The notes under the pieces were generated by a model. The model worked only from the letters and a program-made list of their open reading frames with translations, searched no databases and was not told where the DNA came from. Positions 1,777 through 4,063 of a stretch of DNA of 4,063 bases are shown one piece after another; position 1 is the first letter of the stretch; every line of letters begins with the position of its first letter. The DNA is taken from NCBI RefSeq assembly GCF_057098645.1, contig NZ_JBXSPU010000006.1; one strand, 5' to 3'. Source of the DNA: a plasmid. The translations under genes and the position numbers were made by a program.

Positions 1777-2478
1777 ATGTCAGATCTGATAGCTTACAAA
1801 TCAAACGCCCTTATCGAGGCAAGCTACAAGCTCACTTTGCAGGAACAGCGCTTCCTGCTGGTCTGTATCAGCCGCCTAAAATCCGGAGAAGATTCCCCTT
1901 CGCCGGATGAACAAAAAACCATGACCATCACGGCTGCAGAGTTTCATGATGCCTTTCCTGACATGGGACGGCAGCACGCTGAAGCTAGGCTCAAGGAAGC
2001 GATAGATCGCCTCTGGGACAGGTCAGTAATCATCAAGAACGAGGAAAAACGAGAAGAGTTCCGCTGGGTGCAGTACCGGGCGCAGTATTTCAAAGGTGAG
2101 GCGAAAGTAGATATCACCTTCTCCGATGCCATCATGCCGTATCTGACACAGCTCAAGGGGCAGTTTACGCGGGTAGTCGTGAAGAACGTCTCCAGCCTTT
2201 CCAGCACCTACAGCATCCGCATTTACGAGCTGCTCCAGCAGTTCCGCAGCACCGGTGACAGAACGATAGCTATCGATGATTTCCGAACCATGCTTGCCGT
2301 TGAAGATAAATATCAACAATTCAAAGACTTGAATAAGATGATAATCAAGCCAGCCATCGCCGAACTGAACGAAAAAAGCGATCTGGTTGTAGCTGTTGAG
2401 ACGATCAAAAAGGGGCGCACGGTTGTAGCCCTGCATTTTCGCTTCAAGGAAGACAAACAGATCAAGATGACGATCTAA
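1777..2478 (+). CDS. repA: Rep_3-family plasmid replication initiator (iteron-binding RepA), 233 aa
   Basis: ATG at 1777 and TAA at 2476-2478. The product has MSDLIAYKSNALIEASYKLTLQEQRFLL... and ...ITFSDAIMPYLTQLKGQFT...YSIRIYELL..., matching the pattern of pSC101-type RepA as recalled (MSELVVFKANELAISRYDLTEHETKLIL..., ...LTFSEEILPYLFQLKK...YSMRIYEWLL...). It sits directly downstream of the iterons. Confidence 0.9.
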   Translation: MSDLIAYKSNALIEASYKLTLQEQRFLLVCISRLKSGEDSPSPDEQKTMTITAAEFHDAFPDMGRQHAEARLKEAIDRLWDRSVIIKNEEKREEFRWVQYRAQYFKGEAKVDITFSDAIMPYLTQLKGQFTRVVVKNVSSLSSTYSIRIYELLQQFRSTGDRTIAIDDFRTMLAVEDKYQQFKDLNKMIIKPAIAELNEKSDLVVAVETIKKGRTVVALHFRFKEDKQIKMTI

Positions 2479-2499
2479 AATCGATTTTAAGGCACCTAA

Positions 2500-2523
2500 A
2501 ACGCTCCCTGCTGCGTTTTTTTT
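2500..2523 (+). terminator. Possible weak intrinsic terminator of repA
   Basis: Short stem AACGC (2500-2504) / GCGTT (2513-2517) with an 8-nt loop, followed by a run of 8 T (2516-2523), about 25 nt after the repA stop. The stem is short, so this is low confidence. Confidence 0.3.
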
Positions 2524-2585
2524 GTGTTAGTAGTGCGAAGGTACTATTGAAGTGAAAAATTGCGTCAAAAACGCTCTGATGCAGC

Positions 2586-2612
2586 GAAAAAAGACCCCCC
2601 AATTTTTGGGGG
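2586..2612 (-). terminator. Intrinsic terminator on the minus strand (for the long minus-strand ORF / mobA)
   Basis: On the minus strand: CCCCCAA-AAA-TTGGGGG hairpin (plus 2596-2612), then G, UC and a U7 tract (plus A-run 2586-2592). It lies about 115 nt downstream of the ORF stop at 2726. Confidence 0.5.
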
Positions 2613-2725
2613 CGGAAAAACAAAACTATGCTTGCGTTATGTGAGTGTGCTTCTTGCATTCATCCCTGTCGATGAACATCGACGAACATAACACGATGTT
2701 AAACAAAACAAAATATTGTTCACAT

Positions 2726-4063
2726 TCACTGTGACCAACCGCGATCATGTCTCCTCTCGGTGGTGTGTGTTCGTGCATCTTCCTCGCGCTGCCATTCCTC
2801 CCAGGTACGATTAAAACCCAGCGAGCGGAACAGATGATCCGGCTGTTTTTCTGGTGTGTTGACGGCAGCAAAAAGCGGTGCCTCACGGGTTTTCAGATGA
2901 AACTGCATCAGTTCTGGTGCAGGTGATATGTGGCTGTCTGCATCGTGATTTACGGCAACACCATACCCTGCATACCGTAACCCCTTATCGGTCAGCGCAC
3001 TGATGACCAGATGCCTGTTATCGGCTGAGGGAACGGCAAACGCGGGATACAGCGTACCATTAAGCCGGATAACACCGCCCAGAGAGTCATCCACGCCCAT
3101 GACCAGCAAAAGCTGAAGCTGGCGGGTTTCCCGGTCGACAGAACTCATGACCGGCATCAGCGTCGGTGGCAGACGTCCCTGCATAAAATCCACCTTCCTT
3201 GCCGCTGGTGATGGCATGGCTGGCTGGCGGTCTTCTCCAAGACAGAAAGACTCCGGCCATGTCTTCGGCTGGCGGAGATTGCGGGTATGTTGCGGCCATG
3301 TCTGGCAAACCTGCGTCAGCAGTTGCTCAAAGGTTGCAGAGGAATAAACACGTTGCAGTGGCGGACGTTGGCCGATTTCGCTTCGGTCACAGATATAACC
3401 ACTCCTGTCACGCATTAAATCAACACTCTCAAAGATTCTGGTGCGGTATTTCTCCAGCTCGTTCCCCCAGAGCGTATATTCTCCGTTCCGGTTGTGAAGC
3501 AGAAGGTAACAGGTCATTTCCCCGTTACCAGGCATGGGAGCCTCGCCATACCCCGTAACGACTGCTCTCAGCACCCCTGAATCCATAACGGCATTGTCAT
3601 TTTTCCTGAGCTGCTCCGCGCGACTACGTTCAGTATCTTCCTGTTCCTTCCGGCGCAATTCCTCTTCACGTTTAAGCAACTGGGCTCTGAGAGCTGCAAG
3701 GCCGGATTCCCCCCACTGCTGCCACTGTTTTTCAAATGCCATCTGACTCGCGGGAATGTCCTGTTTCTCCACCTTCCGGTAATGCTGTCGTAATTTTTCC
3801 ATTTGCTGGCTCAGAGACTGGATTTTTCCCTGCTCACTACGGTATTCCGGTGCCGCCCATTGCATCAGGGGAATACGGGAAAAACCGGACGAAAACGGCG
3901 ATGATTTTTTCAGGCTGGCAGCATGGCTCATCGCTTCCTTTCGTTCGGTGTTCAGCTCTTCCCAGCGTCTGCGCGTCGCCTGCATATCTGCCATCATCGA
4001 CATGGCATTACTGGTGAGTTTCCATGCCGAGTTACTGTCCTTCGGCAACGCTTCGATAATGTC
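2726..4063 (-). CDS. mobA: Long ORF with complete 3' end and frame open to the right window edge; most likely the C-terminal ~445 codons of mobA continuing across the junction of a circular molecule, otherwise a 5'-truncated gene of unknown function
   Basis: Minus-strand frame has no stop from 4063 down to TGA at 2726-2728. E. coli-like codon usage (CTG-rich). The supplied track starts at a TTG at 4048, but five further sense codons (DIIEA) precede it up to the edge, and no in-window ATG has a convincing Shine-Dalgarno. The last codon at the right edge (4061-4063) and the mobA codon at the left edge (1-3) are both complete, so on a 4063-bp circle the two ORFs join in frame (...SYTLR|DIIEALPKDSNSAWKL...) into about 715 aa. 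The N-terminal ~150 residues of this part are charged and helical (e.g. LLKREEELRRKEQEDTERSRAEQLRKN); the remainder is globular with no Walker A or other motif I can recognise. Confidence 0.6.
   Translation of the reverse strand, partial: DIIEALPKDSNSAWKLTSNAMSMMADMQATRRRWEELNTERKEAMSHAASLKKSSPFSSGFSRIPLMQWAAPEYRSEQGKIQSLSQQMEKLRQHYRKVEKQDIPASQMAFEKQWQQWGESGLAALRAQLLKREEELRRKEQEDTERSRAEQLRKNDNAVMDSGVLRAVVTGYGEAPMPGNGEMTCYLLLHNRNGEYTLWGNELEKYRTRIFESVDLMRDRSGYICDRSEIGQRPPLQRVYSSATFEQLLTQVCQTWPQHTRNLRQPKTWPESFCLGEDRQPAMPSPAARKVDFMQGRLPPTLMPVMSSVDRETRQLQLLLVMGVDDSLGGVIRLNGTLYPAFAVPSADNRHLVISALTDKGLRYAGYGVAVNHDADSHISPAPELMQFHLKTREAPLFAAVNTPEKQPDHLFRSLGFNRTWEEWQREEDARTHTTERRHDRGWSQ

Follow-up and report, generated by a model that had tools for sequence, protein, structure and literature searches.

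The question raised by this locus is whether a short perfect palindrome behind the relaxase gene of a small enterobacterial plasmid is a dedicated site or an incidental product of the sequence in which it lies. The window analysed here, a stretch of 4063 bp, is a complete circular plasmid of the pIGWZ12/MOBQ41 family with the genes rep, mobC and mobA. PLSDB holds 643 matching records, eight of which have exactly 4063 bp and match at 100%. Records of multimer length, from 8146 to 24355 bp, exist and may be assembly artefacts. Members of the MOBQ41 (pIGWZ12) family are cryptic, mobilisable, high-copy plasmids of enterobacteria, and their selective advantage is unknown (PMC6856555). About 8% of completely sequenced E. 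coli carry a member of the family: a search with 71 bp of the window (2614-2684) matched 420 among 5426 complete genomes of this species, nearly always on plasmids. A literature search, whose coverage did not extend to the 2015 paper on pIGWZ12, found no description of the region between rep and mobA. The first-pass annotation had read the palindrome as a possible protein-binding site, of the resolution or partition-like kind, or else as an RNA processing or stability element. Here we weigh these readings against the origin, variation and folding of the sequence.

Results

The Rep_3 initiator gene rep occupies 1777-2478, with four 22-bp iterons (GTGGAGCTTTTGGGGGTGAAAG) at 1595-1678, and mobC lies at 989-1243. 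The gene mobA encodes a MOBQ4 relaxase of the MobA/MobL type (MobA_MobL domain match, 6.5e-70) and runs on the minus strand across the circular junction, from 810 to 1 and then from 4063 to 2726, with its stop codon at 2726-2728. Downstream of it on the same strand stands a strong intrinsic terminator (2613-2590, stem-loop 2612-2596), which reads GCCCCCAAAAATTGGGGGG and then TCTTTTTT; among relatives its stems are kept and its loops vary. The palindrome lies between these two elements, where it had been placed by the annotation. A further terminator-like hairpin with a T-run is found 3' of rep on the plus strand (2498-2527), so that few rep transcripts should reach the palindrome. A terminator at the palindrome itself was rejected because there is no T-run on either strand and the scan lists no site at 2668-2683.

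The palindrome, GTCGATG (2668-2674), aa, CATCGAC (2677-2683), forms an inverted repeat with perfect 7-bp arms about a centre of 2 nt, exactly as described, and the GAACAT copies at 2674-2679 and 2684-2689 can be read directly in the sequence. The two had been taken as separate, adjacent features. Both are present, but they belong to one 10-bp tandem repeat, TCGAYGAACA, which repeat finding including TRF places at 2669-2689 in 2.1 copies; the units of the window read TCGATGAACA followed by TCGACGAACA, and GAACA recurs with 10-bp phasing in the repeat region. Because TCGA and TG..CA within the unit are self-complementary, two adjacent units give the palindrome. The plasmid contains nine perfect 7-bp inverted repeats with a spacer of up to 12 nt, compared with 3.7 ± 2.5 in dinucleotide shuffles, and 67% of such shuffles hold at least one with a spacer of up to 4 nt. 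Chance alone would be expected to produce such a 7-bp palindrome in 4 kb. Five of the nine are in the rep-mobA intergenic region of about 250 bp, which is an unusual clustering. The observation of the palindrome is accurate but ordinary, and the evidence points to an incidental product of the repeat rather than a dedicated site. The statement that its centre is too tight for an RNA hairpin was not borne out by folding: with DNA and with RNA parameters, on both strands, all four folds form a hairpin at 2668-2683, in which the central G-C pair is opened to leave a predicted 6-bp stem and a 4-nt loop.

The rep-mobA spacer was aligned from PLSDB relatives, and 90 metagenome stretches were collected by an anchored pattern. 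The number of repeat units among relatives is one, two or three. Copy 1 of pKFS-D08_4 has one unit, and the palindrome is impossible there. Two units are the window type, whose exact 41-nt repeat-region sequence occurs in 21 of about 100 homologous copies. Three units are the majority form (about two thirds of relatives). About 68% of the copies in PLSDB fall in the 80-90% identity band, and those listed span 91-93 bp against the 83-bp query, which is consistent with one extra 10-bp unit. Three-unit plasmids have a tight palindrome of 6 bp at best, and in the prototype pIGWZ12, a relative of the window plasmid, the first of the three units reads CATAGAA and the tight palindrome is broken. In pMCR-4.2_AB243 the palindrome is split, between GATGAAC and GAACATAAC, by an insertion of IS1294 (IS91 family), and the insert also carries mcr-4.2 and a RelE/ParE pair.

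Nucleotide diversity (pi) in the patch 2666-2684 is 0.244, whereas in mobA it is 0.086 at third, 0.022 at first and 0.030 at second codon positions. The patch is thus about three times as variable as the synonymous sites of mobA, and the palindrome sequence sits in a local hotspot of change. Diversity, unit number, the state of pIGWZ12 and the IS1294 split all show that the palindrome is not conserved in related plasmids, so that the lack of conservation which the first-pass annotation had named as evidence against its own proposal is largely borne out.

The surroundings of the patch are those of a mosaic. Sliding identity of relatives to the window is 54-78% over rep (1777-2377) and 82-100% over 2377-2527. 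At 2527-2640, where the plasmid varies most, six of seven relatives have 23-74% and L019 has 98-100%. Identity is mostly above 90% from about 2640 onward through mobA, with an exception around 2627-2777 in pLAO91, pE166-P5 and L061 (62-86%). The block 2645-2717 thus forms the margin of the conserved MOB module, in a family that is mosaic. From about 2640 onward conservation is the same as in mobA and by itself is no evidence of function; the proposal that the block is functional because it is better conserved than the spacer was withdrawn on this identity profile. The linker at 2614-2644 is highly variable, with mosaic ancestry and indels (pi = 0.325; 43-74% identity). Two small open reading frames in the region, of 43 and 65 amino acids, were discarded, as they are broken by indels in relatives. 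The stretch 2571-2716 persists as a unit in hybrid plasmids without mobA, although what defines its ends, at 2571 and 2716, is in essence a single hybrid lineage.

One hairpin is common to nearly all relatives, and it is the only one. This stem-loop, H0, lies on the minus strand at 2657-2678 and overlaps the left arm of the palindrome; its RNA reads UGUUCAUC-GACAGG-GAUGAAUG, with six Watson-Crick and two G.U pairs. The 6-bp core helix TTCATC/GATGAA, in which 2659-2664 pair with 2671-2676, is almost invariant within the hypervariable patch. H0 is lengthened to 9 bp in pE166-P5 (TGACGTTCA/TGAACGTCA) and to 12 bp in pLAO91 (CTGACATTCATC/GATGAATGTCAG). The two outer positions of the stem form G.U or U.G wobbles in most variants, with pairing in 16 of 16 and 15 of 16 sequences, and with these wobble pairs the extension of H0 works on minus-strand RNA alone. 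An alternative hairpin on the plus strand, HB (AACATCG/CGATGTT, 12-nt loop, 2675-2700), uses 2677-2681 of the right arm of the palindrome, so that the two cannot form together. The HB pair G2681-C2694 is A-T in pE166-P5 and pSA20094620.4. Other stems occupy the position of the palindrome in other plasmids, namely TCTGATG-aa-CATCAGA in pSA20094620.4, CATGTGA-acg-TCACATG in pE166-P5 and an 11/12-bp composite stem in the pKFS type.

Each of the 16 variants folds better than shuffled versions of itself, with a mean z of about -1.8 to -2.0 on both strands and with RNA or DNA parameters; in relation to single-strand initiation, the fold z-scores are -1.7 to -1.9, again on both strands. Assignment of a strand by fold energies was given up, since the z-scores are alike on the two strands. 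The RNAalifold consensus of the minus-strand RNA consists of H0, as a 5' hairpin, and the terminator. Covariation is not significant (the observed score is equalled or exceeded in 58 of 500 shuffles), and none of the consensus helices shows a double compensatory change. Where a wobble has become a Watson-Crick pair, a single transition was enough, as would be expected under neutrality too. Read by eye, the wobbles of the palindrome and of HB point to the plus strand in three lineages and to the minus strand in one.

The best-conserved part of the region is a 32-nt stretch at 2685-2716, which reads ATATTTTGTTTTGTTTAACATCGTGTTATGTT on the minus strand (pi = 0.042). It contains an extended -10-like motif, TGTTATGTT (2693-2685, minus strand), and a T-rich upstream part, and from its sequence it is a putative promoter directed at the terminator. 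All variants retain TGnTATGTT, the sole change in the 9-mer being at n in pSA_L (TGCTATGTT), and so do the rearranged copies without mobA (pKFS-D08_4 copy 2, pEC488-3, pMO17_54 and p2005FS026). Upstream of the motif a match to a -35 element was not found, and a consensus promoter scan makes no call; extended -10-like motifs are common by chance. The conservation of the 32-mer is not better than that of 23% of equal-sized samples of mobA third positions, in a set of sequences part of which was selected on 15 of the bases of the 32-mer. In the one-unit copy 1 of pKFS-D08_4 the left arm of H0 overlaps the putative -10. A semi-conserved 21-mer on the minus strand, GGATGAATGCAAGAAGCACAC (2645-2665, pi = 0.163), contains the right arm of H0, and 3' of H0 the consensus fold leaves it unpaired.

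A convincing multimer-resolution site had not been seen elsewhere in the plasmid, and for sites of the Xer type, to which this result applies, we agree. The whole plasmid was scanned on both strands for a XerC arm, a centre of 6-8 bp and a XerD arm, scored over 22 positions. The best core in the plasmid scored 16/22, and 200 shuffles scored 15-18; a cer-like MOBQ42 control scored 22/22.

Discussion

Our data are best explained by a non-essential RNA stem-loop in the mobA 3' untranslated region that is generated by the repeat and remodelled by slippage and template switching, a reading to which we give a probability of about 45%. Slippage would change the copy number of the unit TCGAYGAACA, and the palindrome would be made or lost with it. 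The patch at about 2655-2700, between the mobA stop and the intrinsic terminator (2612-2590), is unusually fast-changing and hairpin-prone. What relatives would retain here is neither its sequence nor any given hairpin but the capacity of the minus-strand transcript to fold into a stem-loop of some kind. To the constant core TTCATC/GATGAA (2657-2678) lineages would add stems of their own or substitute them, and the palindrome of the window would be one of these. If the stem-loop acts, it would be a structural stability element at the RNA level. It might be an internal stem-loop at the 3' end of the mobA mRNA, or the 5'-proximal stem-loop of an RNA of about 90 nt that would run from TGTTATGTT (2693-2685) to the shared terminator. 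The suggestion of an RNA processing or stability element is compatible with the data and lies in the direction of this explanation, in which action at the RNA level, the strand involved and any promoter activity are what we infer.

The palindrome could also be a purely mutational by-product with no function at any level, made by slippage and the correction of quasi-palindromes, and this, the chief competing account, we consider somewhat unlikely. Template switching at quasi-palindromes is a source of clustered multi-base changes that make perfect stems without selection. By repeated switching between imperfect inverted repeats it would make perfect palindromes specific to a lineage, and the conservation of the flanks would reflect no more than their membership of the conserved MOB module. 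Much of the variation described above has this character. Diversity in the patch is three times that of synonymous sites, the unit number ranges from 1 to 3, and clustered multi-base changes have led to perfect stems of 9 to 12 bp in single lineages. From about 2640 on, the conservation is that of mobA and the family is a mosaic, the covariation is not significant, and plasmids that replicate bear natural disruptions of the palindrome. Neutrality accords less well with the folding, as all variants still fold better than shuffles and the 6-bp core of H0 is almost invariant inside the hypervariable patch, and with the unit being largely intact in hybrid plasmids that have lost its neighbour mobA.

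The same features could be read more ambitiously. The unit of about 145 bp at 2571-2716 may be an autonomous small-RNA gene that acts in trans on host transcripts, which, judging from the sequence, is clearly unlikely. Its promoter would be TGTTATGTT, and a transcript that begins about 7 nt past the -10-like motif is predicted to have its 5' end at about 2677-2679 and a length of about 90 nt. From 5' to 3' such an RNA would consist of the stem-loop of the repeat patch, the purine-rich, single-stranded GCAAGAAGCACAC, the variable linker, the stretch AUAGUUUU and a terminator of the Hfq type with a U-tail, and the variable 10-bp repeat would tune its 5' structure. Among the properties expected of a small RNA, the region has an intrinsic terminator with a U-tail and a conserved fold, and it shows no compensatory covariation. 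No Rfam family matches the window or three relatives. A trans target within the plasmid was not found, the best non-self duplex having -35.2 kcal/mol against a shuffle mean of -36.0. On the chromosomes of E. coli an extended match was not found; they gave only 3 of the 495 matching places, and among the matches listed there is no partial antisense match. If the region were a small-RNA gene, it would be the first known cargo function of these 'cryptic' MOBQ41 plasmids.

Very unlikely, in our judgement, is a signal in single-stranded DNA, in which the hairpin cluster on the plus strand would serve priming or single-strand initiation, either to make the complementary strand after mobilisation or in lagging-strand synthesis. 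An oriT-like inverted repeat, ACAATC/GATTGT, with TAAGTGCGC lies on the plus strand at 861-896, and by analogy with R1162 we take the plus strand to be the one transferred. The G.T wobbles of the palindrome and HB lie on that strand, in three lineages against one, and a site just 3' of rep on it would make rep double-stranded early. The stems are short, however, and they have no known ssi consensus. The plasmid already contains, at 1253-1343, a widely shared segment, which is presumably pas-like and of the ColE1 type. The z-scores with DNA parameters are modest and equal on both strands, and the palindrome is dispensable in natural variants. Constructs of the family with oriT only are poorly mobilised in trans (PMC6856555), which would allow a second element in cis. 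A primase of the plasmid's own, with its own ssi, was considered and rejected. At its C-terminus MobA shares 44.7% identity with the LPD7 part at the C-terminal end of IncI Sog, and sequence searches against Pfam or PDB found no catalytic primase domain in MobA. The likeness to this non-catalytic part of Sog fits R64 as the best helper plasmid for mobilisation (PMC6856555), not a primase, and it too argues against a single-stranded initiation signal.

Least likely of all is a site for a protein on double-stranded DNA, be it a recombination site (of a degenerate Xer type or another), one resembling a partition site or the operator of a response regulator that reads direct repeats phased at 10 bp. 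Some sequence likenesses can be cited for it. GAACA is repeated with this phasing, and the minus-strand ATGTTCATCG recalls the TorR box, which we take to be CTGTTCATAT. At 2694-2704, CGATGTTAAAC matches 9 of the 11 positions of what we take to be the psi XerD arm, TTATGTTAAAC, and elsewhere the plasmid has no canonical resolution site of the Xer type. In pSA20094620.4 an insert lies between diverged copies of the block, and in pKFS-D08_4 such copies are inverted, a pattern like that around recombination sites. Against these stand the absence of a XerC arm at a workable distance from CGATGTTAAAC, with a score equal to that of shuffles, the hypervariability of the sequence, in which half-sites change together to unrelated sequences, and the lack of partner genes on the plasmid. 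One of the rearrangement junctions is accounted for by the choice of GAAC/GTTC as a target by IS1294, and the others by homologous exchange in a mosaic family.

The resolution and partition-like proposals lack support, in particular given the missing Xer core and partition genes and a sequence that is hypervariable and naturally disrupted. A partition site was rejected, as the plasmid has neither ParA/ParB nor ParM/ParR and its genes are rep, mobA and mobC only. Site-specific recombination at the cargo junctions was rejected as well, because the mcr-4 junctions are IS1294 (IS91-family) target sites at GAAC. The palindrome is not a Rep-binding iteron: it has no similarity to the 22-bp iterons, and iterons differ by Rep class, which the block does not. 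Likewise, the resemblance of the terminator hairpin to iterons or Rep binding is coincidental, since this hairpin does not follow the Rep classes. A nick site of the IncI type (NikB, MOBP), for which we required CATCCTG/T located 8 nt 3' of a long inverted repeat, was dismissed. The IncI oriT reads ...TATTACAATTACACATCCTGTCCCG, that is ACACATCCTG/TCCCG, behind a long inverted repeat, whereas the block of the window, CATCCCTGTC, has an extra C and no inverted repeat 5' of it; among relatives this nick-like block varies (CATCCATG, CATCCAGT).

As a candidate for resolution or partition, the palindrome matters little. A cer-like site is recorded for the MOBQ42 sister plasmids, and none is mentioned for MOBQ41 (PMC6856555). 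The family is very common and, unlike these sisters, has no recognisable Xer site, which puts in question how it avoids loss driven by multimers. The patch is also a natural insertion point, as seen with IS1294 and mcr-4.2, and this could be of practical use for tracking resistance cargo on the backbone.

Comparison with known systems

Like the cer, psi and dif sites, the locus lies in non-coding DNA of a small, high-copy plasmid of enterobacteria, and a stretch like the XerD arm, ATGTTAAAC, adjoins the palindrome. The MOBQ42 sister L111 carries a cer-like GGTGCGTGCAA-CGGGAG-TTATGGTAAAT. Here, in contrast, there is no XerC arm and no centre of 6-8 bp between arms, and the sequence is hypervariable, changes its number of units and is naturally disrupted. 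With the ssi and primosome assembly sites (ColE1 pas and G4-type ssi) it shares a cluster of short alternative hairpins, a position outside the duplex origin and a location on the strand inferred to be transferred. It differs from them in its very short stems, in having no recognisable consensus and in lying on a plasmid without a primase of its own.

Tandem-repeat and quasi-palindrome hotspots resemble the patch in its one to three units, in clustered substitutions that lead to lineage-specific inverted repeats and in a diversity above that of synonymous sites. They provide a mechanism of origin rather than a function, and they leave the H0 core and the 32-mer unexplained. Small RNAs of the MicL or DapZ type, which are encoded within the 3' end of a gene, share the terminator of that gene and have a promoter of their own. 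The locus differs from these in that no -35 element, Rfam match or target was found and in a proposed seed that is no more than semi-conserved. What it has in common with them is its place directly behind a stop codon, that of mobA, and an order of parts in which a conserved -10-like motif is followed by a 5' stem-loop, a single-stranded middle, the A/U-rich stretch AUAGUUUU and finally a strong hairpin and its U-tail.

Discussion

The repeat patch in the 3' UTR of mobA, made up of 10-bp tandem units (TCGAYGAACA, 2669-2689), is a target of the IS91 family, since these units contain GAAC/GTTC tetranucleotides. In pMCR-4.2_AB243 (L018 2501-2536, L109 1-34), the patch is split precisely at the boundary of GATGAAC and GAACATAAC by an insert that carries mcr-4.2, a gene for an IS91-family (IS1294-like) transposase and a RelE/ParE pair. 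In pSA20094620.4 and pKFS-D08_4, the block, which comprises the repeat patch and its flanks (2645-2717), is present together with the terminator hairpin in two diverged copies per plasmid. Those of pSA20094620.4 (L015 360-503 and 1150-1290) are direct and stand on either side of an insert of about 700 bp; those of pKFS-D08_4 (L110 4335-4495 and 4840-5005) are inverted, and one of the two has a single 10-bp unit. In a hybrid lineage (L003 pEC488-3, L004 pMO17_54 and L017 pKFS-D08_4), the block is fused directly at window 2716 to TTGTTAGCGGGTTTCGGAGCGCAGCC...CAGTCACGTAGCGCTAGCGGAG, which we take to resemble the ColE1/pBR322 bom (oriT) region. A search with Rfam found no RNAI in the hybrid lineage.

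In the divergent relative L061 (metagenome contig JGI25842J50178_100064), the palindrome found at 2668-2683 in the window is gone from its usual place, which reads GTCGATGAACGCCAGA. An additional palindrome, GTCGA-atg-TCGAC, is present in the variable linker about 45 nt away, at the equivalent of window ~2625. Another metagenome contig, L027 (OOAG01013480.1), has Illumina adapter-like sequence (…AGATCGGAAGAGCACACGTCTGAACTCCAGTCAC, reverse complement) joined to the plasmid at about window 2630, and this fusion is a chimeric assembly artefact.

Several PLSDB records have exact multimer lengths for this plasmid family: NZ_CP134665.1 has 8146 bp, NZ_CP133869.1 has 24355 bp with 6 copies, and others have 8162-8182 bp. 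These records are either real multimers or artefacts of long-read assembly. Multimers, if real, would agree with a plasmid family without a Xer site.

The terminator hairpin TTTTTGGGGGCGGAAA (window 2596-2620) is similar to the core TTTTGGGGGTGAAA of the iterons (1595-1678). We judged this resemblance to be coincidental because among the relatives the iterons vary with Rep class and the hairpin does not. At the 3' end of rep, window 2377-2527, covering the final ~100 nt of the gene and ~50 nt beyond it, is 82-100% identical across Rep classes; elsewhere the rep genes of those classes are only 54-78% identical. This stretch includes a perfect palindrome of 14 bp, TAAAATCGATTTTA (2476-2489), which overlaps the stop codon of rep. 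The conserved rep end is either the boundary of a recombination event or a cis element under constraint.

The non-coding segment 1253-1343 is widely shared: the matching PLSDB records number at least 5000 and span many types of plasmid. The ColE1/pBR322 region ...CCGCTCGCCGCAGCC...GAGCGAGGAAGCGGAAG contains a primosome assembly site, and by eye we take the segment to correspond to this region; it is therefore a likely host-type ssi for the plasmid. On the plus strand, 861-896 has an oriT-like layout, with the inverted repeat ACAATC/GATTGT followed by ATAAGTGCGC, and resembles the nick region of R1162/RSF1010. The position of this arrangement on the plus strand implies that the plus strand would be the one transferred. 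The C-terminal 291 aa of MobA (window 2729-3601) show 44.7% identity to the LPD7-annotated C-terminal portion of Sog, the IncI primase, in about 2000 conjugative plasmids. This likeness is consistent with the finding that, of the helpers, R64 (IncI1) is the most efficient (PMC6856555), and the two C-termini may represent a shared transfer signal.
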